64,000 nucleotides of DNA from Flavobacteriales bacterium. GTDB lineage: Bacteria; Bacteroidota; Bacteroidia; Flavobacteriales_D; CAJJDF01. The stretch covers positions 4,581 through 68,580 of the forward strand of contig CBFHVI010000010.1 in assembly GCA_965658995.1 (NCBI GenBank). Reading direction: 5' to 3'. How positions within the stretch are numbered: the stretch's first letter is position 1; every line of letters begins with the position of its first letter. Below, piece after piece: positions 1,973 to 52,772 of this stretch. The translations under genes and the position numbers were made by a program. The notes under the pieces were generated by a model. The model saw only the letters and a list, made by a program, of their open reading frames with translations. It was not told the origin of the DNA and searched no databases.

Positions 1973-2527
1973 ATGTCAAGAATAGGAAACGCAATAATTA
2001 CAGTACCGGAAGGTGTAACAATCTCATTAGATGAGGCAAACGTTGTTACTGTTAAAGGGAAGAACGGTGAGTTAACTCAAACGATGCACCCTGATATTAC
2101 AATGAGGAATGAAGAGGGAGTATTGACTTTTGAGCGAGCTTCGGATCAGAAAGAAGTTAGAGCTGCCCACGGTTTATATAGATCTTTGGTAAACAACATG
2201 ATTATTGGAGTAACAGAAGGGTATAAATTGCAATTGGAATTAGTAGGAGTAGGATTTAGAGCAAGCACAAGTGGTCAGATGTTGGATTTGGCACTTGGAT
2301 TCTCTCACCCGATCATTATGGAAATTCCAAAAGAAGTGAAAGTATCTGCTGAAACAGTGAAAGGAAAGCCACCAGTTATTACATTGGAGTCTCATGACAA
2401 ACAATTAGTAGGGCAGGTAGCCGCAAAAATTAGATCTTTCAGAAAACCTGAGCCATACAAAGGAAAAGGTGTAAGATATGTGGGAGAACAATTAAGAAGA
2501 AAAGCTGGTAAGTCAGCAGCTAAATAA
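1973..2527 (+). CDS. rplF: 50S ribosomal protein uL6
   Basis: 184 aa; MSRIGNAIITVPEGVT...PEPYKGKGVRYVGE. Confidence 0.95.
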   Translation: MSRIGNAIITVPEGVTISLDEANVVTVKGKNGELTQTMHPDITMRNEEGVLTFERASDQKEVRAAHGLYRSLVNNMIIGVTEGYKLQLELVGVGFRASTSGQMLDLALGFSHPIIMEIPKEVKVSAETVKGKPPVITLESHDKQLVGQVAAKIRSFRKPEPYKGKGVRYVGEQLRRKAGKSAAK

Positions 2528-2553
2528 TAGATATTAGTTAAAGTCAACAAAAG

Positions 2554-2904
2554 ATGCCATTAACAAAGGACCAAAGAAGAACCAAAATAAAGAGAAGAAT
2601 CAGAAAGAAATTTTCTGGGACGCCTACTAAACCTAGACTATCTGTTTTCAGAAGTAACAAGGAAATTTACGCTCAAATAATTGATGACGAAAATAATGTT
2701 ACGTTAGCCTCTGCCACTTCCTATGTAAAGGGGTTTGTGACAGGAACAAAAACTGAAAAAGCAAAAGAGGTTGGTGCACAAATAGCTAAAAAAGCAATTG
2801 AAGCAGGAATCGAGACTGTAGTATTTGACCGTAATGGTTATGTATACCACGGTAGAGTAAAAGCTTTAGCGGATGGAGCTAGAGAAAACGGATTAAAATT
2901 TTAA
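2554..2904 (+). CDS. rplR: 50S ribosomal protein uL18
   Basis: 116 aa; [19 protein letters not shown]...[27 protein letters not shown]. Confidence 0.95.
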
Positions 2905-2914
2905 AAAAGATTAT

Positions 2915-3421
2915 ATGTCTAAGTTATTAAGATCGGGAGATTTAGAATTAAAGGATAAAGTTGTTGCTATTAACAGAGTAACAAAAGTAACGAAAGGTGG
3001 ACGACACTTCAGTTTTTCTGCTATCGTTGTGGTAGGGGATGAGAATGGAATTGTAGGGCACGGATTAGGAAAAGCGAATGAAGTAACAGAAGCTATCACG
3101 AAAGCGATAGATAATGCGAAAAAGAACCTAATTAGGGTTCCAATTATCAACGGAACTATTCCTCATTCTCAATTCGAGAAATTTGGAGGGGCTAGAGTTC
3201 TTCTAAAGCCAGCGTCAAATGGTACAGGAGTTATTGCAGGAGGTGCAATGCGTGCTGTTCTTGAAAGTGTTGGTGTACATGATGTACTTGCAAAGTCTCA
3301 AGGTTCTTCAAACCCACACAACTTGGTTAAAGCTACTATCAATGCTTTGGCAGGAATGAGAAGCGCGAAAGAAGTTGCAAAGCAAAGAGGCGTAAGCTTA
3401 GATGTAGTATTTAACGGATAA
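2915..3421 (+). CDS. rpsE: 30S ribosomal protein uS5
   Basis: 168 aa; [41 protein letters not shown]. Confidence 0.95.
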
Positions 3422-3435
3422 AAATAAAGTCGAAG

Positions 3436-3612
3436 ATGGCAACTATTAAAATAAAACAAGTTAGAAGTACAATCAAAAAACCTTTGAGACAAAAAAGAAC
3501 AATTAAAGCCTTAGGTTTTAAAAGGTTAAACCAAGTGATTGAGAAAGAGGCGACTCCTCAAATCTTGGGAATGATTAGAAAAGTGAATCATTTGATTCAA
3601 GTAGTAGATTAA
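3436..3612 (+). CDS. rpmD: 50S ribosomal protein uL30 (58 aa; below the ORF-track length cut-off)
   Basis: Hand translation from ATG 3436 gives MATIKIKQVRSTIKKPLRQKRTIKALGFKRLNQVIEKEATPQILGMIRKVNHLIQVVD, stop TAA 3610-3612. It fills the S5-L15 gap exactly as in other bacteria. Confidence 0.9.
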   Translation: MATIKIKQVRSTIKKPLRQKRTIKALGFKRLNQVIEKEATPQILGMIRKVNHLIQVVD

Positions 3613-3637
3613 TTACTCAGAAAGAATTTTTTATATA

Positions 3638-4093
3638 ATGGAATTACATAATTTAACACCTGCGGAAGGTTCAAACAAGAACAAGAAAGTAAGAATTGGT
3701 AGAGGTCAGGGTTCTGGAAAAGGAGGAACTGCTGCAAGAGGTCATAAAGGAGCTAAATCAAGATCTGGTTATTCAAGAAAAATTGGATTTGAAGGAGGGC
3801 AAATGCCTCTTCAAAGACGTGTGCCAAAGTTTGGTTTTAAAAACATCAACAGAGTAGAATATTTAGGGATTAATTTAGATGTGTTGCAAAGTATTGCGGA
3901 TGCTGACAAAGATGCGAAAGTTATTGATTTGGCGTATTTGGTAGAGAACGGGTATGCACACAAGAATGATAGAATCAAGATTTTAGGAAGAGGTGAGTTG
4001 AAAGCGAAATTGGATGTCACAGTTCATAAATTTACTAAATCCGCTAAAGAAGGAATAGTGGCAAATGGAGGAACTGCTGTAGAATTGGCTTAA
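3638..4093 (+). CDS. rplO: 50S ribosomal protein uL15
   Basis: 151 aa; LHNLTPAEGSNKNKKVRIGRGQGSGKGGTAARGHKGAKSRSG. Confidence 0.95.
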   Translation: MELHNLTPAEGSNKNKKVRIGRGQGSGKGGTAARGHKGAKSRSGYSRKIGFEGGQMPLQRRVPKFGFKNINRVEYLGINLDVLQSIADADKDAKVIDLAYLVENGYAHKNDRIKILGRGELKAKLDVTVHKFTKSAKEGIVANGGTAVELA

Positions 4094-4120
4094 TCTCAAT
4101 AATCACCTTTTAACATTTTT

Positions 4121-5455
4121 ATGAAAGCATTAATTGATAAAATAAAACAAATCTGGAGTATCGAAGAACTAAGGAATAGAATAGTTCTGACTTTATCCTT
4201 GATATTGGTGTACCGTATTGGTTCATTTATTGTTTTGCCAGGAGTTGATCCAGACAAAATTCAAGATGCTGATGGAATTTTTAATTTGATTAACATATTT
4301 GCAGGGGGTGCGTTTTCAAGAGCTTCAATTATGGCACTTGGAATAATGCCTTATATCTCTGCATCTATTATTATGCAGTTAGCGGGTATTGCAATTCCAG
4401 CAATTCAAAAAATGCAAAGTGAAGGGGAAAGTGGTAGAAAGAAAATAAATCAATTTACAAGAATATTGACCATAGCCATCTGTGCGCTACAAGCACCAGG
4501 ATACCTTACTTCTTATGTGCCTTCTGAGGCAATCATGGGAGGTCAGGGTGCCACTTTTATCTGGTGGTTGACTTCGGTAATTTTATTGATTGCAGGATGT
4601 GTATTTGCCATGTGGTTAGGTGAAAAAATAACAGACAAAGGGATTGGAAATGGAATTTCAATTTTAATTATGATTGGAATTATCGCTGGATTACCTGGAG
4701 CTTTCGTAACCGAAGTCTTTGGTAAGCTTGGGAATGGTGGTTTTGTCATTTTACTACTAGAAATTGTGTTCCTAGTTGCAGTAACTATTTTTTCTATCTT
4801 ACTTGTTCAAGGTACAAGAAGGATTCCAATTCAGTCTACCAAGAGAGTAGTAGGTGCAAGAGGAAATTCGAATATGGTAGAAGGAGGTTCTAGGTCTTAC
4901 ATTCCGTTGAAAGTGAACGCTGCGGGAGTAATGCCAATTATCTTTGCCCAAGCATTGATGTTTATTCCAGCTTTGCTTTCACCAAACTCAGCAACCTTTA
5001 GTAACATAAATGGTTTCTGGTATAATTTCTTATTTGCGTTAATGATTATTATCTTTACGTATTTTTACACAGCAATTACAGTTAATCCAAAAAAGATAGC
5101 TGAAGATTTAAATAGAAGTGGTAGCTTTATTCCTGGAGTTAAGCCGGGTGAAAAAACTGCTGACTTCATCGATACATTATTGTCAAGAATTACCTTTCCA
5201 GGTTCTGTTTTCTTGGCATTAATTGCAATTTTGCCGGTATTTGCATACCAGGCAGGAATAAAGCAAGAATTTGCTTTGTTCTATGGTGGAACATCTCTCT
5301 TGATATTAGTAGGAGTTATGTTGGACACTTTGCAGCAGATAGAATCACATTTGTTGAGTCGTCATTACGATGGTTTAATGAAGAATGGAAGATTAAAAGG
5401 AAGAGGAGGAGCTACGGCATTTCAAAGTGCTGGAAACAACACGAGCTCAATATAA
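4121..5455 (+). CDS. secY: preprotein translocase subunit SecY
   Basis: 444 aa polytopic membrane protein; IFAGGAFSRASIMALGIMPYISASIIMQL; position after rplO. Confidence 0.95.
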   Translation: MKALIDKIKQIWSIEELRNRIVLTLSLILVYRIGSFIVLPGVDPDKIQDADGIFNLINIFAGGAFSRASIMALGIMPYISASIIMQLAGIAIPAIQKMQSEGESGRKKINQFTRILTIAICALQAPGYLTSYVPSEAIMGGQGATFIWWLTSVILLIAGCVFAMWLGEKITDKGIGNGISILIMIGIIAGLPGAFVTEVFGKLGNGGFVILLLEIVFLVAVTIFSILLVQGTRRIPIQSTKRVVGARGNSNMVEGGSRSYIPLKVNAAGVMPIIFAQALMFIPALLSPNSATFSNINGFWYNFLFALMIIIFTYFYTAITVNPKKIAEDLNRSGSFIPGVKPGEKTADFIDTLLSRITFPGSVFLALIAILPVFAYQAGIKQEFALFYGGTSLLILVGVMLDTLQQIESHLLSRHYDGLMKNGRLKGRGGATAFQSAGNNTSSI

Positions 5456-5465
5456 TTAGGTACTA

Positions 5466-6245
5466 ATGGGAGTGCACTATAAGACGAAGGAGGAGATAGA
5501 ATTAATAAGACAGAGTTCTTTACTTGTTGGTAAAACTTTAGCGGAAGTAGCTAAGCTAATTAAGCCAGGTGTTAGTTCACTTGAGCTAGATAAAGTGGCA
5601 GAAGAATTCATTAGAGATAATGGAGGTGTTCCAACTTTCTTGGGGTATAATGGTTTTCCAGGTTCCCTTTGCATTTCAATTAATGAATGCGTAGTTCACG
5701 GAATTCCAAATGCAAAACCACTTGAAAATGGAGACATTATTAGTGTGGATTGTGGAGTTTATAAGAATGGGTTCAATGGAGATTCAGCATATACTTTTCA
5801 GGTAGGAGAAGTGGAAAGAGAAACACAGCAATTGTTGCGAGTAACTCATGAATGTCTAGAAAAGGCAATCGAAGCTTGCAGAGTTGGAAACCGGATAGGC
5901 GATATAGGTCATGCTTGTCAAAAGCATGCCGAAAGCTACGGATACGGTGTAGTGAGAGAATTAGTAGGTCATGGTTTAGGAAGGAATCTACATGAAAGTC
6001 CTGAAGTTCCAAATTACGGAAAACCAGGTAGAGGATTAAAGTTGCGAGAAGGATTAGTGTTGGCGATAGAGCCAATGATAAACATGGGAACAAAAGAAAT
6101 TGATCAATTGAATGACGGTTGGTCAATTGTGACACAAGACAGAAAACCTTCAGCTCACTTTGAACACGATGTAGCTATAGTAGATGGGAAACCAGAAGTT
6201 TTGTCGACATTTGAATACATAGAAGAAGCATTAAAGATAAAATAA
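5466..6245 (+). CDS. map: type I methionine aminopeptidase
   Basis: 259 aa; FLGYNGFPGSLCISINECVVHGIP, DCGVYKNGFNGDSAYTF, VGHGLGRNLHE, EPMIN, FEHDV. No adk between secY and map, as I recall is usual in Bacteroidota. Confidence 0.93.
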   Translation: MGVHYKTKEEIELIRQSSLLVGKTLAEVAKLIKPGVSSLELDKVAEEFIRDNGGVPTFLGYNGFPGSLCISINECVVHGIPNAKPLENGDIISVDCGVYKNGFNGDSAYTFQVGEVERETQQLLRVTHECLEKAIEACRVGNRIGDIGHACQKHAESYGYGVVRELVGHGLGRNLHESPEVPNYGKPGRGLKLREGLVLAIEPMINMGTKEIDQLNDGWSIVTQDRKPSAHFEHDVAIVDGKPEVLSTFEYIEEALKIK

Positions 6246-6248
6246 TAC

Positions 6249-6467
6249 ATGGTAAAACAAGCGTCAATAGAACAAGATGGATTAATCATAGAATCATTAT
6301 CCAATGCTAAGTTTAAAGTTGAACTTGAAAATGGGCACGTAATAACTGCTCATATATCTGGAAAGATGAGAATGCACTACATTAAGATTCTTCCAGGAGA
6401 TAAAGTAAAAGTAGTAATGTCACCTTATGATTTGACTCAAGGTAGAATTACTTTAAGATATAAATAA
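6249..6467 (+). CDS. infA: translation initiation factor IF-1
   Basis: 72 aa S1-like protein; [47 protein letters not shown]. Confidence 0.95.
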
Positions 6468-6486
6468 ACAGTTAGTAACATCAGAG

Positions 6487-6603
6487 ATGAAAACAAGAGC
6501 ATCAGTAAAAAAGAGATCTGCAGATTGCAAAATCGTAAGAAGAAAAGGCAGGTTGTACGTGATTAACAAGAAGAATCCAAAATTCAAACAAAGACAAGGA
6601 TAA
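6487..6603 (+). CDS. rpmJ: 50S ribosomal protein bL36 (38 aa; below the ORF-track length cut-off)
   Basis: Hand translation gives [38 protein letters not shown], stop TAA 6601-6603. Classical infA-rpmJ-rpsM position. Confidence 0.9.
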
Positions 6604-6613
6604 ACTATATATT

Positions 6614-6991
6614 ATGGCAAGAATTTCAGGAATAGATCTACCAAAGAACAAAAGAGGGGTAGTAGGATTAACTTACATCTTCGGAATAGGTAGAGGAAGA
6701 GCTAAGGAAATATTGAAGACTGCTGGTGTTGATGAAAACATCAAAGTTCAAGATTGGGATGATGATCAGTTAAGTAAAATCAGAACAGCAATTACGGAAA
6801 CTTACAAAGTGGAAGGTGCGTTGCGTTCAGAAGTACAATTGAACATTAAAAGATTGATGGATATTGGTTGTTACAGAGGAATAAGACACAGAAGTGGACT
6901 TCCGTTGAGAGGACAAAGAACCAAGAACAATTCAAGAACAAGAAAAGGAAGAAAGAAAACTGTTGCAAACAAAAAGAAAGCAACTAAATAA
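6614..6991 (+). CDS. rpsM: 30S ribosomal protein uS13
   Basis: 125 aa; [26 protein letters not shown]...[22 protein letters not shown]. Confidence 0.95.
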
Positions 6992-7004
6992 TAAGTAGTT
7001 TATT

Positions 7005-7391
7005 ATGGCAAAGACAAATGCAAAGAAAAAAAAGAAAGTTGTTGTAGAATCAACTGGACAAGCTCATATCCAAGCTTCGTTCAATAACATCATCATTTCT
7101 TTAACAAACAATAGTGGTCAAGTAATTTCTTGGTCATCTGCTGGAAAGATGGGATTTAGAGGATCTAAAAAGAATACTCCTTACGCTGCACAAATGGCAG
7201 CTGAAGATTGTTCAAAAGAGGCTTTTGAATATGGATTGAGAAAAGTAAAGGTTTTTGTAAAAGGTCCTGGTCAAGGAAGAGAATCAGCAATCAGAACAAT
7301 TCACAATGCAGGAATTACCGTTACAGAAATCGTTGATGTAACTCCAATTCCACACAATGGATGTCGTCCACCAAAAAGAAGAAGAGTTTAA
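7005..7391 (+). CDS. rpsK: 30S ribosomal protein uS11
   Basis: 128 aa; [18 protein letters not shown]...[16 protein letters not shown]. Confidence 0.95.
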
Positions 7392-7432
7392 TCATTAATA
7401 GAGTTATCTAACAAAAGATATAAAAGAGCATT

Positions 7433-40786: not shown

Positions 40787-41053
40787 AACCTTTTTTTTCA
40801 AATACATACTTTTTGCAGAAATGAGGACTGAAGGTTTTTAAGAATTAGCAATAAGGTGCGGAGTTGTGGCAGGAGCGAGTATGGGTAAAAACTTATTGTG
40901 GTTTGTCCTTCTTCAGGACAAAATTTCCCAAAAAGCTTCTTGATTTTTTTGTTCTTTTGTATCAAGACAAAGGGACAAGGAGAATAAGCTCAGAGATTTG
41001 ACTATGACAATTTAGAATTAAATAAAAAACAGAATACTTAGAAATAGTTAACA

Positions 41054-41632
41054 ATGTTCACAGGAATTATAGAAGAATTAGCAGAGGTAGTAGCCGTTAC
41101 TCCCAAAGGTGGAAATGTAGATTTAACAGTAAAATCGAACCTTACCAAAGAACTAAAGATAGACCAAAGTGTAGCTCACAATGGAGTGTGCCTCACTGTG
41201 GTAGAAATAGAAAACGATACGTACACCGTGACTGCTATCGAAGAAACACTAAATCGAACCAATATCGGGCAACTAAAATCGGGTGATTTTATTAATCTTG
41301 AACGTTGTACACAAATTGGCGCAAGGCTCGATGGACACATTGTACAAGGCCATGTAGACACACTGGGTAATTGCACCAAAATTGTTGAGTTGGACGGAAG
41401 CTGGGAGTATTATTTTACTTACAATTCGGATGATGTAACGGTAGAAAAAGGGTCTATTACCGTAAACGGAACAAGCCTTACCGTGTGCGAATCGGGAGAG
41501 AATAATTTCTCTGTGGCTATTATTCCTTACACATACAACAATACCTTTTTCAAATACTTGAAAGTAGGCGACAAAGTAAACCTAGAATTTGATATCGTAG
41601 GGAAATACGTTGCGAAATTGATGAATCGATAA
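41054..41632 (+). CDS. ribE: riboflavin synthase alpha chain
   Basis: 192 aa; MFTGIIEE..., duplicated lumazine-binding halves (SVAHNGVCLTVVE / SITVNGTSLTV). Confidence 0.93.
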   Translation: MFTGIIEELAEVVAVTPKGGNVDLTVKSNLTKELKIDQSVAHNGVCLTVVEIENDTYTVTAIEETLNRTNIGQLKSGDFINLERCTQIGARLDGHIVQGHVDTLGNCTKIVELDGSWEYYFTYNSDDVTVEKGSITVNGTSLTVCESGENNFSVAIIPYTYNNTFFKYLKVGDKVNLEFDIVGKYVAKLMNR

Positions 41633-41653
41633 GTCGACCACCAAAAAAGTAAT

Positions 41654-41680
41654 GGGAGCATGGGTTAGCTCCCTTGTTTT
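41654..41680 (+). terminator. rho-independent terminator after ribE
   Basis: GGGAGC (41654-41659), 8-nt loop, GCTCCC (41668-41673), then TTGTTTT. Confidence 0.7.
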
Positions 41681-41747
41681 ATTTCTTTATGAATTTACTC
41701 ACTAACTTTTAGCTTTGTAACAAACCTTTTATTTATTCATGTTCTTT

Positions 41748-41775
41748 CGATTTAGCGATGAAATCGTTATTTTTT
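41748..41775 (+). terminator. second terminator-like hairpin in the long intergenic region
   Basis: CGATTT, loop AGCGATG, AAATCG, then TTATTTTTT. Confidence 0.4.
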
Positions 41776-42247
41776 ATATTCTTTGTTGAAAACAGTAAGT
41801 ATCTCTTTCAATAGGTATAAATCCACATCAACATAAATCTAAATCTCTACTGTTCAAATTCAAGGAATAGAGTTTCGAGATTAAGAACGAGTGCTTAAGT
41901 TGGACTCTTATTTCATTTCCAACTAGGTACAAACATCAAAATAAAACAAAATGGTCACCTGGGTACATAGTAGAATTTAGATCATGGAAACCAAGCTTTT
42001 TAGAGTTGTTTTATAATGGTGAAAAGAGTCAAAATCCACCACAATTCTCAGTTCTATTTCACTTTCTCAACTCGCTCAAAAAGAATCAATTGAAAATTTA
42101 CTTTTATTTAAATGCAGGTTTAAAGGCTTGAGATGCAGGTCGCACCCTTTGTGAATAAAAAGGGGAGTTCTTATTTTCACTCCAACGAAAAATCTCCCAT
42201 TGTCATATTTCCTAATTAATCCTATCTTAGTATCCTAAACCAACCCT

Positions 42248-45200
42248 ATGGCTCAAGGAAAAAAATTTGGAACATTTGCTGGTGTATTTACTCCCTCCAT
42301 CCTCACGATTTTGGGGGTAATCATGTACATGCGTTTGAGTTGGGTAGTGGGAAATGCTGGGCTAGGTTTGGCAATTGCCATCATACTTATTGCTCACGTA
42401 GTGTCTATTTCCACCGGGCTCAGTGTCTCGTCTGTCGCTACCGACAGAAAAATAAAAGCAGGTGGAATTTATTACATGCTATCAAGGAGTCTGGGGTTGC
42501 CAATTGGAGGTTCCATCGGAATTACCCTGTTTGTGGCAACTGCCCTAAGTATTGCTCTCTATTTAATTGGTTTTGCTGAGAGTGCTTTGGTGGTTCTCCA
42601 AGAACCCTTGGGTCTTCAAGAAGTGGGCATCAATCACATCAGGTTGTTTGGGTCTATTGCGCTGTTCCTTATTGTTACGCTTGCCTATATCAGTACCAGT
42701 ATCGCTATCAAGTCTCAGTTTTTTATTCTCGGTGCCATTATTTTGTCTGTTCTTTCCATTTTGTTGGGAACGCAAGAGGGAAAGACCTTTGATGTGTCTC
42801 GGACAGGAGAAATAGAATCTAGTTTTTTTGTGTTATTTGGAATATTTTTCCCAGCAGTTACTGGATTTACAGCGGGCGTTGCCATGTCGGGCGATTTAAA
42901 AGATCCAAAAAGATCTATTCCTTGGGGAACGATGTTGGCCGTTGGTGTAGGGCTTTTGGTATATCTTGGGTTGGCGGTTTTTATTTATTATTCCATTGAT
43001 TTAGATATCCTAATTTCCGATAAAAACGCCTTAATAAAATTTGGATTTGTTCCCGTGTTAGTCATTGCAGGAATTTGGGGAGCAACGCTTTCTTCTGCCT
43101 TGGGTGGAATATTGGGAGCACCTAGGATTTTACAAGCAATGTCTGTTGATAGCATAACGCCAAAATTGTTTGCCAAAGGAAAAGGGGAGGACAACGAACC
43201 AAGAAATGCACTCATTCTCACTTTCTTAATTGCGGAAGCAGGAATATTAATTGGAGAATTAGATGTTATTGCTGAGGTGGTTGCTATGTTTTACCTTTCG
43301 GCTTATTTGTTTATCAATGTTTCGTGTTTTTTGGAGCAGTGGGCGAGTCCAGATTTCAGGCCGAGTTTCAAGATTCCGTTACCTGTTTCGTTAGTCGGTG
43401 CCATTGTGACTTTTGTTCTCATGATTCAGCTCAATCTTCTTGCTGCAGTAGTGGCAATTTTGGTGATGATGTTAATCTTTATTTGGCTCACAAGGAAACA
43501 ATTGGTCTTAGGTTCGGGAGATGTATGGCAAAGCGTTTGGTCTTCTATCGTGAAAGTGGGCTTGAAGAATTTGGATAAGAAATCGACTCACAAAAGAAAT
43601 TGGAACCCAAATATTTTGCTGTTTAGTGGAGGAACTTCCACACGGAATAAATTAATTGAGTTCAGTAAAACAGTAGCTGGAGCCAAGGGGATGATTTCGA
43701 ATTTTGATTTGATTGAAAATAAAACTGCCCAAGTCTTATTCCCAAAACACAAACAATCCATCAAAGACGAGGAGTTGTTTAGCCAAGGGATTTTTGCACG
43801 AAAACAAGAATGTAAAGATGTGTATGAAGGAATAGAAGTGATATCTAGTACTTACGGGTTTTCGGGAGTAGAACCCAATACCATCCTAATGAGTTGGGAG
43901 CAAAGTTCGGATGAGCCCACAAGATTTGCAAAGCTAACCAATAAACTGTGTCAGCTCGACTACAACGTGTTGTACCTCGACTATGACCAACAAAGAGGAT
44001 TTGGAAGAAAAAAATCAATTGATATTTGGTGGAATGATTTTAGCAACACAACGGAACTTACCTTGAATCTTGCCAAATTCATGAATACTTCCATGGACTG
44101 GAGGCATGCAGAAATACGAGTGTTGTACGTAAATGACAACAATGACCACAAGCCCCAGCTGGAAGAAGTAATAGATGAATTATTGGCTAACTACCGAATA
44201 ACTGCCAAATCAAAAATCATTAATAATGAAATAGAAAACAAAGATCTCTACGAAATAATGAAAGTAGAGTCTTATCAATCAGATTTGGTGATTGTGGGAA
44301 TACCCGATGAGTTGGAAAATGAATCGGATTTTGTACGAAATACCGATGAACTTGTGGGTATATTGGGAACTACACTATTGGTTCGAGCTTCTTCCCATTT
44401 CGAAAAAACTGAGGTAGTGCTCACCACCGAAACGGAAATAGGTTTGCCGACCGTAACAGAAGAAGAGGAAGAAGAATTGGAATTGTCGCAAGAATTTTAT
44501 GCGTACCCGCTTTTGAATAACCTATTTGTCTTTAATGCAAGAAACACGACTCATTTAACCGAAACAGTGTTTTCGAAAGTATACGCGAATTACCAGTTTT
44601 TGCTAGATGAAATGGAGCGATTGCTGATTGAGAACGGAGAGAACTTGACCAAGCAGTTTTCTTCTAATAAGGATCAAAACAAAGAAGCTCTGAATCTTTC
44701 CTTTATTGAGTATGTTCAAGGAATGTCTCAGCACTTAAATCGGTACAATTCGGAGTTTTTGCCAAAGACAGAAAACAGTTTTTATTCTGGTATTGAAATG
44801 ATTTTGATTCAAAATGAAACCTATTTGTCGCGTCTTCCAAAACGATTAAAACGGGTGATTCAGGAAGAAGACTTGGCAATACAAGCCACTGATTCGAAAG
44901 CTGAAAAAAGGGCAAAGAAATGGTTGAGATTTATAAATAATAGGCTAGGATTGAGGCCCAAACGGTCGGTAAATTACCGGGAAAATGTCACGTATTATTA
45001 TCAAAATTTTTACCTGAAAGCATTTATGAATACCTTGATGAAATCAGGGATATTTGTCTACCAAAACACTACGCTTATCAATGAAATAGCGGATGAGATT
45101 AAAAATAAATATTCTGAACTGCGGCAAAAGCAACACATGAGCAAAGAGGGGATTCAATCCATGATAAACCAAATGTCTGCTGAGATTGCTTCTCAACGAA

Positions 45201-47326
45201 ATCAGTTGGAATGCAACTACAAAGAGTTACTCATTCATTTTGGTAAAATGAACAAGGATTACGTGTACTCGTTGAGCAAAAAACTGGAACTGGTCTCGAT
45301 AAACGCGGAAGTGGAAGAAGCTATCGAAGAAAAAGGAACACGGCAATTCAAGAAACAAGTGAAAGAATTGAAAGCGTATCCTAGTTTTTTTGTGAGAAAC
45401 AATAGGTTGATTCACAACGCGATACTTCTTGATATTTCGCTCCATGAGATTCATCCAGAAATAGACTCGGTTATTCGTGAGACTATTTCCTCTATCAGTC
45501 GATTGAGCATAAAACCTGAGCTAAATAAGGTGAAACAATTAAAAGAAATTGATAAATCTTTGGTAGAGAATGATGGCCTAACCAAAATGGAATTGATCCG
45601 TTACCTCAATCGTTTGCCCCTGTTTTCTTTTGATATAGAAGAGTTAATCAACACCACTATTCGCAAGGTAGAAAAGATTGTGTACAAACTAAAAAGCTCA
45701 CTCGAAATTATGGACATTGATTCGGTCAATAATTTGAACGAGGAGCAGCAGTCTGGGGTAAAAACCAATACTATTCAGTTGCAACGATTGATTCTGTTCT
45801 CGGTGGAAAACAAACTGATAAAAGCCCTAAACTCGGAGACAGATACGCTCGAAAAAGAATTGAATGATTTGATTACTCAATTCAAAAACAAAACGCTGAC
45901 GATTGAAACCATTGATTTTGAAAAAGAGCAAGAAACGGCTAAAGAAATTAGAAGTGAATTACTAAAATCTAGCCTACGGCTTGAAGACGATATCGAGACT
46001 CGATTCAAGAAATATATCTCTAAAATAAATGACGAACTGGAGGAGACTTACAAATTATTGGATTACGATTTTATCGCTGGAAATAGCGCGGTAATCAATC
46101 AATACATTAACAAAACTGGTGTAGCCACGTCTCGTTTTAAACGAGTATTCAATCAAACCAAAAGAGAAATAAAAAAGCGAATTTCACAAACCTTATCTTT
46201 TGTAGATCAGCAAAGAGATGAATACTTGGTAACCGAGTACAAACTGAAAAACAAAGGGATTGAGAACCTGAGTTCGGTGGTTTCAGGGTTTGTAGAGAAA
46301 GTGAAGATGCCAAAATCTACCAAAGAAAAACTTCCGTTTTTTTACAAAAAACTGTTCTTAGGAGGTCATTCTTCCCCGGTAAAAATAGAACACCGAGAGG
46401 ACGAAATTGAGCAAGCCAATACTGCTATTCGATTGTTGAACAGAAAGTCAGGTGGAGCTATTCTGATTCTAGGAGAGCAACTTTCTGGAAAAAAATATTT
46501 TTCTGATTACTTGGCATCTCGAATGTTGAAAAGAACGGTGGTGACCATTGATCCCATTATTGAAAATCGATCTGTTTTGGATTCTTTTAGAAAAACTGTT
46601 TCCAATGCATTTGGGAATGAGTTGTCGTTGGAAGAAAATCTAAAACACCACAAAGCCTCTACCATTGTGCTCAACAATATTGAGAAATGGGGAGTGAATA
46701 CCGAGGTGATTTTACTTATCAAGAAAGCGGTAGAACAGTTTGGAAAAAAACATCATTTTATTTTGACAAGCTCCACCACATTTTACAACTATCAGCAACC
46801 AATTACTCACCTGGATAACTGTGTAATTTCCTCTATTTTGCTCTTACCCATCCGCAAGGAGGGATTTGTTGAAACGCTTCGCTTAAAACACCAAGCGGGA
46901 GGAATGAAATATATCCTCAACGGCAAGAGAGAAGTGGATTTGACGGATAGAAAACAAGAGTATTTGTATCAAAAATATCACTCGGTGTACAAGGGCAATT
47001 TAGGTCGAGCCTTTTCTGGATGGATCAATAATATAGAATCTATTGACGGGAATGAACTCGTCATAAGAGAGCCAAAAAATGTTTTCTTTCCCGATATTTC
47101 AAATCCAGAATGGATGGTCATGCTGAAGGCATTTGCACTGTTCAAAGAGGTGAGTAAAAAAGATTTTACTACGTTGTTGTCGAGTGATTTTAATTTTCAA
47201 TCGGTCTTGAGTCAAATGAAACGAATTCGACTAATTCAAGAAACAAAAAGTAACGTATTTGAACTTTCGGACGAAGCGTACTTTGCTGTAAAACACTATT
47301 TAAAAGACAAAAAAATAATCCAATAA
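42248..47326 (+). CDS. giant fusion protein: cation-chloride cotransporter (CCC/SLC12-like, APC superfamily) core plus about 960-aa coiled-coil and degenerate P-loop NTPase-like C-terminal extension
   Basis: 1692 aa. Residues 1 to about 460: KFGTFAGVFTPSILTILGVIMYMRLSWVVGNAGL and a 12-TM permease. Residues about 460-720: CCC cytoplasmic domain motifs NWNPNILLFSGG and SIDIWWNDFSNTTELTLNLAKF...WRHAEIRVLYV. Acidic linker TEEEEEELEL (about nt 44457-44490). Then a long helical K/E/N-rich region. The tail has REDEIEQ...GGAILILGEQLSGKKYF (Walker-A-like) and STIVLNNIEKW (Walker-B-like). Confidence 0.8.
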   Translation: MAQGKKFGTFAGVFTPSILTILGVIMYMRLSWVVGNAGLGLAIAIILIAHVVSISTGLSVSSVATDRKIKAGGIYYMLSRSLGLPIGGSIGITLFVATALSIALYLIGFAESALVVLQEPLGLQEVGINHIRLFGSIALFLIVTLAYISTSIAIKSQFFILGAIILSVLSILLGTQEGKTFDVSRTGEIESSFFVLFGIFFPAVTGFTAGVAMSGDLKDPKRSIPWGTMLAVGVGLLVYLGLAVFIYYSIDLDILISDKNALIKFGFVPVLVIAGIWGATLSSALGGILGAPRILQAMSVDSITPKLFAKGKGEDNEPRNALILTFLIAEAGILIGELDVIAEVVAMFYLSAYLFINVSCFLEQWASPDFRPSFKIPLPVSLVGAIVTFVLMIQLNLLAAVVAILVMMLIFIWLTRKQLVLGSGDVWQSVWSSIVKVGLKNLDKKSTHKRNWNPNILLFSGGTSTRNKLIEFSKTVAGAKGMISNFDLIENKTAQVLFPKHKQSIKDEELFSQGIFARKQECKDVYEGIEVISSTYGFSGVEPNTILMSWEQSSDEPTRFAKLTNKLCQLDYNVLYLDYDQQRGFGRKKSIDIWWNDFSNTTELTLNLAKFMNTSMDWRHAEIRVLYVNDNNDHKPQLEEVIDELLANYRITAKSKIINNEIENKDLYEIMKVESYQSDLVIVGIPDELENESDFVRNTDELVGILGTTLLVRASSHFEKTEVVLTTETEIGLPTVTEEEEEELELSQEFYAYPLLNNLFVFNARNTTHLTETVFSKVYANYQFLLDEMERLLIENGENLTKQFSSNKDQNKEALNLSFIEYVQGMSQHLNRYNSEFLPKTENSFYSGIEMILIQNETYLSRLPKRLKRVIQEEDLAIQATDSKAEKRAKKWLRFINNRLGLRPKRSVNYRENVTYYYQNFYLKAFMNTLMKSGIFVYQNTTLINEIADEIKNKYSELRQKQHMSKEGIQSMINQMSAEIASQRNQLECNYKELLIHFGKMNKDYVYSLSKKLELVSINAEVEEAIEEKGTRQFKKQVKELKAYPSFFVRNNRLIHNAILLDISLHEIHPEIDSVIRETISSISRLSIKPELNKVKQLKEIDKSLVENDGLTKMELIRYLNRLPLFSFDIEELINTTIRKVEKIVYKLKSSLEIMDIDSVNNLNEEQQSGVKTNTIQLQRLILFSVENKLIKALNSETDTLEKELNDLITQFKNKTLTIETIDFEKEQETAKEIRSELLKSSLRLEDDIETRFKKYISKINDELEETYKLLDYDFIAGNSAVINQYINKTGVATSRFKRVFNQTKREIKKRISQTLSFVDQQRDEYLVTEYKLKNKGIENLSSVVSGFVEKVKMPKSTKEKLPFFYKKLFLGGHSSPVKIEHREDEIEQANTAIRLLNRKSGGAILILGEQLSGKKYFSDYLASRMLKRTVVTIDPIIENRSVLDSFRKTVSNAFGNELSLEENLKHHKASTIVLNNIEKWGVNTEVILLIKKAVEQFGKKHHFILTSSTTFYNYQQPITHLDNCVISSILLLPIRKEGFVETLRLKHQAGGMKYILNGKREVDLTDRKQEYLYQKYHSVYKGNLGRAFSGWINNIESIDGNELVIREPKNVFFPDISNPEWMVMLKAFALFKEVSKKDFTTLLSSDFNFQSVLSQMKRIRLIQETKSNVFELSDEAYFAVKHYLKDKKIIQ

Positions 47327-48051
47327 TGAACGATTTTTTCACTATCGATTTATCACTCATCTCCATTTTTTCCTTAGTAGGAATGGGAGTTTTGGGAGTG
47401 GTAATTTATTTCCTCACTTGGTTTATCCAGCAGTATGGGTTGATTTTATTGGTAAAATCTCCCGTAAAAAGAAAACGAGTCAGTTCACTTCTACCAGCTG
47501 TATTTACCATTGGATGGATAGTGTTTGGGTTGTATTGTTTTTATACCTTGATTGTACCGTTTCCATTTATGGGGATTATTTTGTCAGCCGTCTTTATCTA
47601 TCTAGGCAAAGGATATTTTGTCAATTTAATCCACGGATTATTCTTCCGACTCAAAGGAGACATCTCTATCGGGCAAAAAATTGCCATGAAAAATTATGCT
47701 GGCGAAGTAGTAGAGCTAAATACCTTTGATGTGGCGATTCAGAACGAAGAAGGAGAAATAATTCTAATTCCCTACAGCAATATGGCGAGTATGGAGATTG
47801 TGAAAAAGGATTTTTCGGCAGATTTCTCTTCTCATAAATTTGTGATTACAACTAGTAGCTCAATCAATGAATCAACTCTTAAGAATTCTCTGCTCTCTCA
47901 GCCCTGGGTGTCTTCGGTTATTTTACCCAAAATAACTCGCCTCAAAGAGGAGGACGAAACCATTACCTATTCGGTTTTGGCTTACCCCATTGATGAGAAA
48001 TATAATTCTTTTGTAGAAAGAGATTTGAGATTAGCCTCGCGCTCTAGTTAA
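47326..48051 (+). CDS. small MscS-family mechanosensitive-channel-like protein
   Basis: 241 aa; three N-terminal TM helices, then [41 protein letters not shown], resembling the MscS beta-domain signature. The ATG overlaps the upstream TAA (TAATG). Confidence 0.7.
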
Positions 48052-48908
48052 TCTAATATAGAACCCGTTACAAATAACAGAGCCAGCAGAGGAATGCCAA
48101 TTACCGCAGTATTTAGCACAGCGTAATAAAAGGGCGTTGGATTTTTGAATGCTACAGTTAGTACAACCAGTATGATAAAAAAAAGACCGATAGGGTAGTG
48201 GAAGGCTCTTTTTTGATTGATATCTCGGAAATATAAATCTTCGATTTGGTAGCCCAAATCAATATCAAAAATGAAAGTTGAGACTACTTCTATGTGGTCG
48301 CTCGTGTAAAAATAACCCGCCAATTCGCCCTGAACAAAGGCGGTATGTTCTTTTCCGTTTTTGTCTTTTGTGATAATTTCTGAAAGGATGTATCCCGGCT
48401 GGGCGGTACCAACTAACATTCCCTCTACTAAACTTATTCTGTTGGTTTCCAGGTATTCTACTGAGTTGTGTTGTGGATTTAGGTGAAAGTCAAGAAAGAG
48501 CAAAATGGAAAAAAGAAGTCCGAAAATAGCCACCACTGGAAAAGCTTTGTACACCCAAGATTTTTTCAGGTTTTCAAAATCTCTCAGGGCTTCCATTTCT
48601 TCTTGTTCCTCTTTTTTCTTTCGATATTCCGTTGTTTGCTTTTTTAATTGAGATAATTCCTCTCTTGTCATCCATCTATTGTGTCTGCGACTAAACACTT
48701 TTTCTTTTTGACTGGAGTAGGAGGCAGCGGCATTGCTTTCTTGATTGATCAAAACCTGATAAGCCTCTTTTATTTCGATAAATTTGTCGCTCGTATCTTT
48801 CTCATTGGTATCTGGATGGTACCGCAGAGCAAGTTTTCTGTAAGCTCTTTTAATCTCTTCGTCAGTTGCTCCCTCTGATAAGCCTAGTATGTGATAGTAA
48901 TTTTTCAA
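48048..48908 (-). CDS. J-domain (DnaJ-like) membrane protein
   Basis: 286 aa; [32 protein letters not shown] (HPD motif), charged linker, then several TM helices. Confidence 0.85.
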
Positions 48909-49251
48909 AAGTAACTTAGGAATAAGAATGTACAGTGAATGAAAAAAAGAGTTGTAATAAAGTCAAATTTAGTAAAAGAAATAGAACGATGAATCTGACA
49001 AGACATTTTTAGGTTAGTTGTAGAGGTAAATAGATTGATTTTTTTTACTGATACGAGAGCGAATGAGGTAGTAAAGATAGGCTGCAAGTGATTGTTAGGA
49101 TTAATGAATGTTGTACATTAGAGGAATAAAATTGGATGCGAAATCTCTTTCCTTCTCGAACGAATACGAGGGTTTGGCGGAGTGAATAGGAGAGAAAGTG
49201 TAAAACCATTTATTTTTTCTTCAAAAAAAGTAGAAATTCGGGAATATTTAT

Positions 49252-49259
49252 TAATTTTG
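49252..49259 (+). promoter_or_regulatory. candidate Bacteroidota -7 promoter box for yceD-rpmF-plsX
   Basis: TAATTTTG matches TAnnTTTG, 21 nt upstream of the ATG at 49280. Confidence 0.35.
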
Positions 49260-49279
49260 CAGTCCTTAAACCCTTAACT

Positions 49280-49783
49280 ATGGAAACGAAACATCAGTAC
49301 AAGATTCCTTTTGTTGGGCTAAAAGAAGGGAAACACAAGTTTGAGTTTTCCGCCGGGAAAGCGTTCTTTGAAGAGTATCAATATATATTAGTAGACAACG
49401 TAAGTTTGGAGGCTACAGTGGAGTTGGAGAAGCTATCGACCATGATGGTAATGGTAATCAAAACCGAGGCACATTACACCACTCAGTGTGATATGTGCGG
49501 AGACGATATCGAGTCCGTGGCAAACTCCGAAAATAAGTTGTTTATTAAGTTTGGCGAGGGTGAAAGCACAGATGAAAATATTCTGTTGTTGGATCAATCG
49601 GAGTATGAAATTGACGTTGCAGAATTGCTTTTCGAATTTTTTGTCACTTCAGTACCTGCCAAGCACAGACATCCAGCAGGTGAGTGTAACCAAGAAGTAT
49701 TGGCCAAGCTTGAGACCTACAAGGTGAATGGAACTCCCGAAGAAACCAACCCAATGTGGGATAAATTAAAAGAATTAAAATAA
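49280..49783 (+). CDS. yceD: YceD/DUF177 family protein
   Basis: 167 aa; position upstream of rpmF-plsX; CDMCGDD motif and acidic C-terminal half. Confidence 0.8.
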   Translation: METKHQYKIPFVGLKEGKHKFEFSAGKAFFEEYQYILVDNVSLEATVELEKLSTMMVMVIKTEAHYTTQCDMCGDDIESVANSENKLFIKFGEGESTDENILLLDQSEYEIDVAELLFEFFVTSVPAKHRHPAGECNQEVLAKLETYKVNGTPEETNPMWDKLKELK

Positions 49784-51031: not shown

Positions 51032-51664
51032 ATGAAAAAACTGGTAAGTGTAGCACTTGGTGCTCTATTGATTGCAGGATGTTCTACTTCGAATGAAGTA
51101 GCGTCAAACAAATTATTTCAAAAAAGAAAATATCAAAAAGGTTGGCATGTAAATGCTTCGCCACGATTTGATAAGAATTCGGTTCATACAGAGGAAGAAT
51201 TAGTTGAGGCTAGAGAAGTGCTTGTAGAAACGGAAAAAGAAGAAAAAGTTCTTGTTGCGAGTCAGAGCATTAATGCTTCTCAAAACGAGACGATTGAGTT
51301 TTCTGAGGAATTGGTGGAAGAAATGAATGTAATTTTTTTCCAGAAATTTCAGAGCGAGAACACCGAAAACGTAACAAAACTTGACCTTCCTTCAACTGCT
51401 CTGGAGATTGAGCCAATTGAATTGAATGAGGTCGAGATTGAACCAAGTAATCAACAAATTTCGCCATCCAATACCGAGTCAAATTCGACTGATGACGACA
51501 TGCTTCTTCTTCTTTATTTGTGTGCAATTTTTATTCCTTTTGTGGCAGTAGGAATCGCAACAGATTGGGAATTAGATAAAGTGCTAATTGCTGTTCTCTT
51601 GTCATTCTTGTGTTGGATTCCTGGAGTAATTTATGCTTTTATTATCATCCGAGATTATTACTAA
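51032..51664 (+). CDS. lipoprotein with C-terminal YqaE/Pmp3 (UPF0057) proteolipid domain
   Basis: 210 aa; lipobox LIAGCSTSNEVASNKLFQKRKYQKGW; acidic linker; C-terminus LCAIFIPFVAVGIATDWELDKVLIAVLLSFLCWIPGVIYAFIII. Confidence 0.7.
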   Translation: MKKLVSVALGALLIAGCSTSNEVASNKLFQKRKYQKGWHVNASPRFDKNSVHTEEELVEAREVLVETEKEEKVLVASQSINASQNETIEFSEELVEEMNVIFFQKFQSENTENVTKLDLPSTALEIEPIELNEVEIEPSNQQISPSNTESNSTDDDMLLLLYLCAIFIPFVAVGIATDWELDKVLIAVLLSFLCWIPGVIYAFIIIRDYY

Positions 51665-51986: not shown

Positions 51987-52772
51987 ATGGAAAGAAGGTT
52001 GCTTAAAAATAGTGTCAGTGTTCTGATTTGTTTGTCTCTTCTTTTGTCGTGTTCTACATTCAATCAAGTTGCTTCTAACAAACTTTTTCAAAAAAGAAAG
52101 TACACCAAAGGATGGTATTCTAGTGTATCTAGGAGTATAGAAGATAGAGCTCAAGTTGCTCAACAAAAATCAGTTATTGTCAATAAAGACATCTCATTTT
52201 CGGATTCAACTTCACTTGTTAGGACCACTACAACTGCAACTTCGTCCACGGTGAGCGCTTCCAATTCACTCGTACAGAAAAGGAAGGAAAGGATGCCAAG
52301 TATTCGTTCTACTTTGTTGAAAACAGAACGAGCTGAGTCTTCAATTCCACGCTACATCGATGAAACGACAATCGATCCTGTATTCAAATCCTCTAAGGAA
52401 AAAACGTCAATTTATCCTACCTCTCAGAGTGAAAATGTTAGATTTCAAGATCCTTGGCTAAGTGATAAAGTGGTGAATATATTACTTGCCATTTTTGCCA
52501 TTTTGGTACTTCTATTTACCGGAATTGCCCCATTGGCGGTATGGATTGCCAATGGTCCCGGGCCCTCTCTTAAAATGAGTGTTCTACTTTATGTAGCCTT
52601 TTTGTTTTTTGCTTTGATTTTTGTCATGACAATCTTGTACATTACAGTGTTTGCTGGAGGTGCTGCTACAGTCAGTAGTATTGGTCTCGCGGTAACATTT
52701 GGAATCTTAACCGTTGTTACCAGCATAGTGTCTTTCTTTCATGCCTTGGTTTCGATTATAAAAGGGTTCTAG
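51987..52772 (+). CDS. lipoprotein/multi-TM hypothetical protein, N-terminal paralog of 51032-51664
   Basis: 261 aa; LLLSCSTFNQVASNKLFQKRKYTKGW, the same motif as the gene two positions upstream. S/T-rich linker and a C-terminal block of about 4 TM helices. Confidence 0.6.
   Translation: MERRLLKNSVSVLICLSLLLSCSTFNQVASNKLFQKRKYTKGWYSSVSRSIEDRAQVAQQKSVIVNKDISFSDSTSLVRTTTTATSSTVSASNSLVQKRKERMPSIRSTLLKTERAESSIPRYIDETTIDPVFKSSKEKTSIYPTSQSENVRFQDPWLSDKVVNILLAIFAILVLLFTGIAPLAVWIANGPGPSLKMSVLLYVAFLFFALIFVMTILYITVFAGGAATVSSIGLAVTFGILTVVTSIVSFFHALVSIIKGF

Follow-up and report, generated by a model that had tools for sequence, protein, structure and literature searches.

A bacterial cation-chloride cotransporter fused to a helical, AAA+-like and winged-helix tail, and its predicted MscS-family partner gene

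Background

The cation-chloride cotransporters (CCC; SLC12, TC 2.A.30, with the eukaryotic NKCC1, NCC and KCC1-4 and the archaeal MaCCC) are the described relatives of the first part of a 1692-residue protein encoded in a 64,000-nucleotide stretch of DNA (the window) from a Flavobacteriales bacterium (GCA_965658995.1, contig CBFHVI010000010.1, positions 4,581 to 68,580). Residues 1-719 of this protein share with the CCC an APC-fold core and a cytoplasmic C-terminal domain. It differs from them in three respects: the eukaryotic N-terminal phospho-regulatory domain is missing, an extension of ca. 970 residues (a helical linker, an AAA+-like domain and a winged helix) has been added, and an MscS-like partner gene follows. 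The reviews and structure papers retrieved describe no CCC with such an extension or with a dedicated MscS-like partner, and the one prokaryotic CCC structure that they cite is the C-terminal domain of MaCCC (Warmuth 2009, via PMC4301019).

Parts of the extension resemble other described systems. The AAA+-like domain has the same base, lid and winged-helix order, and the same R-E-x-E helix ahead of Walker A, as Orc1/Cdc6 (1w5t ORC2, 1fnn Cdc6), clamp loaders, DnaA and RuvB, with Foldseek E values from 3e-8 to 1e-5. However, identity to Orc1/Cdc6 is only ca. 12%, no Pfam AAA family matches above threshold, and the module is joined to transport proteins rather than to replication factors. Its family has a Walker B motif of the form x-D-h-E-x-W and has GN[IV]G where Cdc6 has GDAR, its sensor-2 arginine motif; the window protein in addition has GKK, NN and KH at its motif positions.

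The partner shares three transmembrane (TM) helices and the MscS beta-domain with MscS, YnaI and MscM. It is shorter than E. coli MscS (241 vs 286 residues), belongs to a separate subfamily, directly follows the AAA+ module with few exceptions, and is a predicted channel. A broader analogy is with the RCK/KTN domains (Trk/Ktr/KefC), CBS domains and c-di-AMP receptors, which regulate bacterial cation transporters through nucleotide-binding cytoplasmic modules. The logic may be similar, a cytoplasmic nucleotide-binding module being fused to, or encoded in an operon with, K+/Na+ transporters, but the predicted AAA+ fold is neither Rossmann/RCK nor CBS, and the module is far larger, with a long helical arm and an MscS-like membrane partner. 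A search of the literature and domain libraries returned no description of such a CCC fusion or of an AAA+/MscS-like pairing, though one may exist outside the literature searched.

Results and discussion

A single gene encodes the transporter and its tail

The open reading frame (ORF) at 42248..47326 on the + strand of the window is a genuine single-gene fusion of a complete CCC and a ca. 970-residue tail. It has 1692 codons, starts with ATG and has no internal stops. The tail is homologous to a family of standalone proteins of ca. 800 residues, and the MscS-like gene immediately downstream is tied to the AAA+ module, not to the CCC. This MscS-like partner and the association of the standalone module with a Na+/H+ exchanger are the strongest clues to function. 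Both were absent from the original prediction for this locus, which was made from the letters of the DNA and described a complete CCC-type transporter with a long extra tail in one ORF. The features of the locus are as follows.

42248..43567, + strand: transmembrane core of a CCC (SLC12-like), with NKCC-like ion-site segments kept (aa 1-440; PF00324 at aa 13-415, E 5.5e-42; NKCC1 7smp, E 8.9e-75)
43568..44404, + strand: cytoplasmic C-terminal domain of the CCC, where a complete stand-alone CCC ends (aa 441-719; TIGR00930, KCC structures, CCC-only relatives)
44405..46072, + strand: predicted all-helical linker of no known fold, beginning with a disordered acidic hinge (aa 720-1275; AlphaFold2)
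44456-44485, + strand: acidic hinge TEEEEEELEL (aa 737-746)
44891..44980, + strand: polybasic/aromatic patch DSKAEKRAKKWLRFINNRLGLRPKRSVNYR, net charge +9, inside a small predicted beta-hairpin insertion (aa 882-911; charge scan, AlphaFold2)
46073..46396, + strand: predicted helical segment joining the linker and the AAA+ base (aa 1276-1383; N-terminal helices of the AlphaFold2 model of the C-terminal module)
46397..47029, + strand: AAA+ ATPase-like base and lid (aa 1384-1594; AlphaFold2, Foldseek, family alignments)
aa 1383-1389, + strand: R-E-x-E pre-motif REDEIEQ of the AAA+ base, in the helix ahead of Walker A
46460-46501, + strand: P-loop segment ILILGEQLSGKKYF (aa 1405-1418)
46472-46495, + strand: degenerate Walker A, GEQLSGKK
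46658-46690, + strand: STIVLNNIEKW (aa 1471-1481)
46667-46690, + strand: degenerate Walker B, VLNNIEKW
46877-46903, + strand: KH, replacing the RH dyad of the family
47033..47323, + strand: C-terminal winged-helix-like domain (aa 1596-1692; AlphaFold2 order H-E-H-H-E-E-H at model residues 347-414)
47326..48051, + strand: partner gene for a predicted 241-aa MscS-family protein, three TM segments and a beta-domain (PF00924, E 3.6e-8; profile against MscS structures)

The motifs quoted in the original prediction were all found, offset by no more than a few nt. For an assembly error or frameshift that joined two ordinary genes speak only the unusual length of the gene and one relative (L045) with its CCC and its tail in two overlapping ORFs. 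The other copies argue against this. The cluster of proteins at 90% identity or more to the window protein has 18 members, 16 of them full-length at 1692 aa, from NCBI, JGI, ENA and Logan assemblies with contigs of up to 1.8 Mb. With one genome scanned for each GTDB species, 595 CCC relatives were found, and the best 80 of these loci were classified by architecture. In 58 of the 80, CCC, linker and AAA+ domain form a single ORF of 1651-1834 aa, under several phylum labels. Eleven encode a CCC alone, four a CCC and a helical region with no AAA+ domain (ca. 1230-1318 aa), and six are cut by the end of the contig; L045 is the only one with two ORFs. The fusions P0219 and P0242 are also full-length. 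The 16 full-length cluster copies and the 58 single-ORF fusions rule out an artefactual stop or frameshift near nt 44450, and we attach a negligible probability to any error of this kind. The fusion described in the original prediction is intact and recurs in relatives.

Two of the rarer arrangements may have their own histories. In L045, a Lentimicrobiaceae metagenome-assembled genome (MAG), the two ORFs span 2165-7415 and the MscS-like gene lies 1.3 kb further downstream; the split is either a natural fission or a frameshift. The four helical-only loci (L040, L049, L057 and L060, from Bacteroidales/Bacteroidota) have no MscS-like gene in the locus, and are possibly a third architecture or possibly decay products.

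The lineage of the window is a group of uncultured Flavobacteriales, in which it stands nearest to L008 (69% identity), P0001 (75% over the tail) and the syntenic L093. Other carriers of the fusion are labelled as Flavobacteriales, Bacteroidales, Cytophagales families, Saprospiraceae/Lewinellaceae and Sphingobacteriia, and further labels include Calditrichota, Chlorobiota, Marinimicrobia, Gemmatimonadetes, SAR324 and Nannocystaceae – at least six phyla in all, though the labels of MAGs may be imprecise. Three carriers are cultured: Agaribacillus aureus BMA12, Mangrovivirga halotolerans M17 and Rapidithrix thailandica JCM 23209. In public databases the ca. 1700-aa fusions are named 'amino acid transporter', 'amino acid permease' or 'Na-K-Cl cotransporter'.

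The transporter part

Judged by its sequence matches, aa 1-719 is a complete CCC with a 12-TM APC-fold core and a large cytoplasmic C-terminal domain, and electroneutral cotransport of cations and Cl- is its predicted activity. Solved structures of human NKCC1, KCC1-4 and NCC match it with E values from 7e-82 (NKCC1) to 5e-67, and the KCC structures align with aa ~172-667. TIGR00930, the model of the K-Cl cotransporter subfamily, matches with E 8.5e-125 and 418 bits, under the subfamily cut-off of 953; the alignment pairs aa 268-673 with positions 386-826 of the 936 in the model. CCC-only relatives of 731-755 aa cover residues 1 to ~720 of the window protein and stop there. The first ca. 720 residues are therefore the whole transporter, as had been claimed.

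In the alignment to NKCC1 (7smp) the window protein retains the TM1 segment GV..RLSW, the TM3 segment GG.YY..SRSLG, the TM6 segment FFPA.TG..AG..SGDL, an NKCC-type TM8 segment (ATLSSAL) and the TM10 segment. Individual residues in TM1 GVI, the TM3 Tyr, TM6 FFPxxTG, TM8 and the TM10 Tyr are presumably the cation and Cl- sites, as in the NKCC1/KCC structures. The eukaryotic N-terminal phospho-regulatory domain is absent, since the NKCC1 alignment begins at aa 6. The core is under strong purifying selection: the proportion of non-synonymous differences (pN) is 0.085-0.107 between the window and L006 or L008.

The AAA+-like module and its standalone relatives

Neither Pfam, NCBIfam nor PDB sequences gave a significant match to the tail. 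According to the original prediction, no such tail is known from a described CCC or APC transporter, and none appeared in these libraries or in the literature searched.

The fold of the C-terminal 419 aa was modelled with AlphaFold2 from a 10-sequence alignment (residue 1 of the model is aa 1274). The mean predicted local distance difference test score (pLDDT) was 75, with 84-92 in the alpha/beta core. In the model, helices alternate with five parallel strands, and a helical lid and a winged helix (aa ~1620-1687) complete the C-terminal end. Foldseek against the PDB returned 421 matches at E <= 1e-3. The top matches, at a probability of 1.00, were archaeal Orc1/Cdc6 (1w5t, E 3.1e-8; also 1fnn and 2qby), RFC (1iqp, 3e-7), RuvB and DnaA. 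The model thus supports assignment of the C-terminal ca. 310 aa to an Orc1/Cdc6-like AAA+ fold followed by a winged helix. The winged helix is conserved in the standalone family, and the best fold matches are the winged-helix-bearing Orc1/Cdc6 proteins. The order noted earlier – REDEIEQ, then about 15 aa, then the P-loop – corresponds to the R-E-x-E helix that precedes Walker A in Orc1/Cdc6-type AAA+ proteins; in the family alignment (A3), R110 of this helix is nearly invariant and E113 is invariant.

The original prediction had proposed an AAA+/STAND-type NTPase with a winged helix. Its AAA+ and winged-helix parts are borne out by the model, and the suspected P-loop segment does resemble NTPases in structure (Orc1/Cdc6, RFC, RuvB, DnaA). 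The module is closer to Orc1/Cdc6-type proteins than to STAND: no STAND protein was among the top 50 Foldseek matches of the C-terminal module, and nSTAND3 (PF20720) matched the tail only faintly (E 0.012; 15.7 bits, where the cut-off is 27.2).

A profile of the C-terminal module, searched exhaustively, matched 2152 cluster representatives at E <= 1e-3, of which 666 were at E <= 1e-30. An earlier word-indexed search with the tail had found five proteins, a strong underestimate of the family. The top profile matches are mostly standalone proteins of ca. 800 aa from Saprospiraceae and Chitinophagales, named 'ATP-binding protein' or 'hypothetical' by NCBI. By sequence comparison the tail is homologous to this family. 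BLASTP gave 3e-14 over 256 aa. In hhalign, a tail profile of eight sequences matched the standalone family overall with Prob 99.9% and E 2.3e-32. A separate hhalign comparison aligned the C-terminal ca. 400 aa (tail 540-956 with standalone 406-804) with Prob 97.3% and E 2.3e-11. One protein, P0113, was tried as an N-truncated fusion and rejected: in-frame stops upstream make it a separate tail gene on that contig, and any gene further upstream is beyond the contig edge.

The MscS-like partner gene

The start codon of the partner gene overlaps the stop codon of the fusion (TAATG). Its product has three hydrophobic TM segments, and the KRKR-rich loop between TM1 and TM2 fits the N-out topology of MscS. 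A profile of five partner sequences matched E. coli MscS (2oau/6rld) over MscS residues 31-213, which comprise TM1-3 and the beta-domain, with E of ca. 3-5e-7. The profile also matches YnaI and MscM; all of the solved matches are heptamers. The partners form a distinct subfamily, in which members score 203-339 bits and generic MscS proteins ca. 47 bits.

Position relative to the AAA+ module is highly consistent. The partner starts about -12 to +215 nt from the stop of 52 of the 58 complete fusions. The other six comprise one locus without room for it, one with a remnant (L041) and four without a partner (L021, L061, L067 and L077). Downstream of a CCC lacking the AAA+ domain, the gene was found in none of the 11 CCC-only loci and none of the four CCC and helical-only loci. 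Among loci with at least 1 kb of downstream sequence, it follows 52 of 57 AAA+ fusions and none of 10 CCC-only or helical-only genes, a difference with a Fisher p of 1.2e-8 that overstates the independence of loci related by descent. The partner also follows the standalone AAA+ gene in all five of the diverse loci sampled, and in the P0113 locus. All three sampled divergent members of the partner subfamily lie directly after a CCC-tail gene. The partner gene goes with the AAA+ module rather than with the CCC, and these data point to a partner that is dedicated to the module, translationally coupled to it, and predicted to be a membrane protein of the MscS family.

Association with Na+/H+ exchangers

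In the same five standalone loci the gene order is AAA+ protein, MscS-like protein, and a Na_H_Exchanger protein (PF00999) of 428-435 aa. The exchangers belong to one CPA subfamily that is common to standalone and fusion loci (50-52% identity; L039 vs L004, BLASTP E 1e-104). A gene of this subfamily adjoins CCC-tail fusions in six Cytophagales loci, two of which have the order CCC-tail, MscS-like, CPA. There is no copy of it within the 64-kb window.

Further genes were seen next to the module in some loci. In L091 and L092 (7737-13800), the CCC-tail/MscS-like pair is followed by genes for MgtE, an MgtE_N/CBS protein and three more MscS-type proteins (PF05552/PF00924), which suggests an ion-homeostasis island. 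A TPR-PD40-OmpA protein of ca. 660-860 aa is encoded in 11 of 60 fusion loci, among them L011 (3019-5148, - strand). In Saprospiraceae loci (L001/L002, 2839-4827, - strand; L004/L005, 152-2743, - strand) its gene lies upstream of, and divergent from, the standalone AAA+ gene. Its recurrence may reflect nothing more than synteny within Bacteroidota, or else a weak link in function.

State of the nucleotide-binding motifs

Motif conservation was calculated from 64 non-redundant family members. Walker A has the form GxxxxGK[ST] in 55 of them, which the GEQLSGKK of the window fails to match. The family Walker B has the form hhhh-x-D-h-E-x-W, with D in 54 of 64 and E or D at +2 in 62 of 64; in the VLNNIEKW of the window neither of the two Walker B positions is acidic, and the E at +2 is kept. 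The lid begins with an Arg-His dyad in 58 of 64 members and with KH in the window. The degeneracy of both Walker motifs, pointed out in the original prediction, is real, and the dyad adds a third change.

These changes have a narrow distribution. GKK and KH are restricted to the lineage of the window (the window, L006/P0001, L008 and also P0219). Both Walker B positions are non-acidic only in the window, L006, L019 and L026, and the combination of GKK, a non-acidic Walker B and the RH to KH change is found only in the window's lineage. P0242, a CCC fusion of 1701 aa, is canonical (GERFSGKS, HDLELWW). By comparison of the sequences, the motifs degenerated within this one lineage, and the rest of the family looks competent for catalysis. 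Because most relatives, including CCC fusions like P0242, keep a canonical Walker A, the ancestral mechanism was probably nucleotide-dependent.

The degenerate domain is not decaying. Synonymous sites are saturated and dN/dS is not computable, and selection was judged by the contrast between pN and the proportion of synonymous differences (pS). When the window is compared with L006 or L008, the tail has a pN of 0.15-0.32, well below the pS, which is saturated at 0.78-0.87. The window, P0001 and P0219 share GEQLSGKKYFSDY without a single difference. The earlier suggestion of a pseudo-enzyme therefore fits the window lineage, with its GKK, NN and KH, and does not fit the family, in which Walker A is canonical in most relatives. 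The AAA+-like domain of the window protein is most likely a non-hydrolysing scaffold or switch that possibly still binds nucleotide.

The helical linker

The linker is rich in L, E, K, I and N (12, 12, 9, 8 and 8%), with less than 2% each of P and G. Its AlphaFold2 model (pLDDT 71.5; predicted template modelling score, pTM, 0.59; residues 1-32 below pLDDT 50) has seven helices of 36-65 residues each, five of them of about 50-65, at model residues 35-83, 89-143, 191-241, 247-295, 301-365, 459-494 and 509-570. Foldseek against the PDB found no structural match, returning only generic helical bundles (best E 0.39), and assignment of a fold was dropped. A coiled coil of ca. 600 residues, as had been proposed, is not established by this model; the helices are no less likely to form an intramolecular assembly than a classical coiled coil. 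On account of the predicted helices and the lack of a structural match we refer to the linker as an all-helical arm rather than as a demonstrated coiled coil.

The polybasic patch lies in a beta-hairpin insertion between the second and third helices, with predicted strands at model residues 148-151 and 186-189. The position of this basic region is conserved: the most basic 30-aa window is 120-220 aa past the CCC domain in 50 of 59 fusions, with a median charge of +8. A hidden Markov model of the linker matches most fusions. Fusions of the window type and of the P0242 type have ca. 17% identity in the linker and are collinear along the entire tail. The segment between linker and AAA+ base (aa 1276-1383) has predicted helices at residues 2-17, 22-63, 66-79, 83-88, 91-102 and 104-109 of the C-terminal model, with mean pLDDT of 56-73, and belongs to the region that aligns with the standalone family.

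Possible function and alternative explanations

The locus may be a two-gene unit for ion homeostasis, with a cotransporter of NKCC-like Na+/K+/Cl- type that carries a helical arm and an AAA+-winged-helix module, followed by the MscS-like gene. The module would be portable – fused to a CCC here and in many phyla, and present as a free protein of ca. 800 aa beside a Na+/H+ exchanger in Saprospiraceae and Chitinophagales. The MscS-like partner would report osmotic state or membrane tension. The AAA+ domain would turn this input into a conformational change, through nucleotide binding or hydrolysis and oligomerization in most members, and the helical arm with its polybasic patch would relay the change to the cytoplasmic domain of the transporter, switching transport on or off. 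In the window lineage the switch would have become non-hydrolysing after the changes from GKT/S to GKK, from x-D to N-N and from RH to KH.

A role in regulation, the sensing of tension by the partner and the relay of a signal through the linker are inferences. We have about even confidence in the general form of this proposal, in which the helical-AAA+-winged-helix module acts with the MscS-like partner as a regulatory device for monovalent-cation transporters in ion and volume homeostasis. The specific version, with membrane-tension sensing by the partner, is more tentative and somewhat more apt to be wrong than right. An extended form is likewise put forward as a speculation that is somewhat less likely right than wrong. 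It holds that module and partner are a widespread, previously unrecognized osmosensing and regulatory complex that acts directly on secondary monovalent-cation transporters, on a CCC in cis and on CPA Na+/H+ exchangers in trans. It would be a bacterial counterpart of the eukaryotic WNK-SPAK control of CCCs by cell volume, built from different parts, with the MscS-like protein a tension sensor besides or instead of a valve and the window lineage a non-hydrolysing variant.

Several observations weigh against a regulatory device of this kind. Gene adjacency and translational coupling are evidence of co-function and not of mechanism, and contact between tail, partner and transporter is a step that we infer. 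The partner is not strictly obligatory, since four or five fusions have no adjacent partner and the four helical-only ORFs have neither AAA+ domain nor partner. Stoichiometries are poorly matched: the solved MscS matches are heptameric, while CCCs are dimers and AAA+ rings are usually hexamers. The linker and the N-terminal half of the standalone proteins are not established as homologous, their match being weak and collinear (hhalign Prob 13%, E 0.002). The shared descent of the loci tempers the Fisher test. Lastly, in P0109, a 907-aa protein from a Saprospiraceae MAG, a standalone AAA+ protein appears to be fused at its C-terminus to an MscS-like one; such a fusion is topologically awkward because MscS is N-out while the AAA+ domain is cytoplasmic. 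It was considered as a Rosetta-stone fusion but not used as evidence, as an indel in the MAG has possibly merged adjacent genes.

Other functions can be proposed for the same parts. In a version close to the original prediction, the helical arm and a dead AAA+ domain might merely cluster, dimerize or localize transporters, with the MscS-like protein a co-expressed but independent emergency valve. Long helices are suited to self-association, all three motifs are degenerate in the window lineage, and the helical-only ORFs do without AAA+ domain and partner altogether. Such a scaffold is nevertheless fairly unlikely, as the prevalence of canonical Walker A argues for nucleotide-dependent activity in the family, and mere co-expression hardly accounts for a dedicated MscS subfamily that tracks the AAA+ domain across two unrelated transporter classes. 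It is also unlikely, and a little more so, that the AAA+ domain is an energy sensor, binding ATP/ADP and gating the CCC by energy charge, with a logic like that of RCK or CBS domains, while the MscS-like protein provides a parallel efflux route. This explanation gains from the P-loop glycine and lysine, which are kept in GEQLSGKK and strictly conserved within the lineage, and by analogy from the nucleotide binding reported for eukaryotic KCC C-terminal domains (PMC8280820). Mg-nucleotide binding would be expected to weaken, however, once Walker A has no Ser/Thr, neither Walker B position is acidic and the RH arginine is gone, and the dedicated partner would be left unexplained.

The closest structural matches are initiators that bind DNA and contact it through their winged helix, and a membrane-tethered Orc1/Cdc6-like module could in principle also bind DNA and couple ion flux to gene expression (a 'trigger transporter'). 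We think this very improbable. Winged helices often mediate protein-protein contacts, and the standalone form is always linked to membrane proteins (MscS-like, CPA). The examined neighborhoods contain no conserved regulator target and no third strongly recurrent gene family, and a search of nt 41000-49500 for riboswitches and other regulatory RNAs gave no Rfam match. A role in anti-phage defence or abortive infection, with an AAA+/STAND-like sensor that triggers CCC and MscS-like effectors to collapse ion gradients, is hardly credible. Many defence systems do pair NTPase sensors with membrane effectors, and the faint nSTAND3 match (E 0.012) points the same way. On the other side, the sole PADLOC model to match the tail was ZorA, at chance level (E 0.047), and none matched P0005, P0113 or the partner. 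The syntenic context is one of housekeeping genes (riboflavin synthase, thiolase, DnaJ-domain protein, YceD, L32, PlsX) and not of defence islands, the other neighbors are ion-homeostasis genes (CPA, MgtE, other MscS-type), and the CCC core is highly conserved (pN as given above).

Other features near the gene

The 615-nt intergenic region upstream of the fusion (41633-42247) has a terminator-like hairpin at 41654-41673, behind the riboflavin synthase gene, and a second hairpin at 42145-42164. A scan for promoters and terminators was uninformative (15 promoter-like sites vs 19 expected), the hairpin at 41654-41673 being the only terminator-like one. Convergent with the partner gene is a 286-aa gene (48048-48908, - strand) that encodes an N-terminal DnaJ domain (PF00226, E 3.4e-21) and then, by eye, membrane-like hydrophobic segments; a DnaJ-domain gene holds the same position in the L006 locus. 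Two ORFs on the + strand, 51032-51664 and 51987-52772, look like a paralogous pair: they share a lipoprotein-like N-terminal signal, the motif 'VASNKLFQKRKY.KGW' and hydrophobic, membrane-like ends. One of them has a counterpart in L006 with PF01679 (Pmp3).

Conclusions

The window protein is a CCC with an accessory apparatus that is undescribed in the literature searched, and the regulatory module could be a categorically new system. Public annotation of these ca. 1700-aa proteins is corrected by the present analysis. Sensing of cell volume and ionic state by CCC is central in eukaryotic physiology and is essentially unexplored in prokaryotes, which lack WNK-SPAK. Very many bacteria add an AAA+-like domain and a helical arm to a CCC and pair it with a private MscS-type protein, and MscS-family proteins may have a new role here, as signalling partners. 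Natural motif-intact and motif-dead variants permit mechanistic comparison. Three of the carriers are cultured strains, and the module is a concrete candidate, open to genetic work, for a transporter regulator of a new class.

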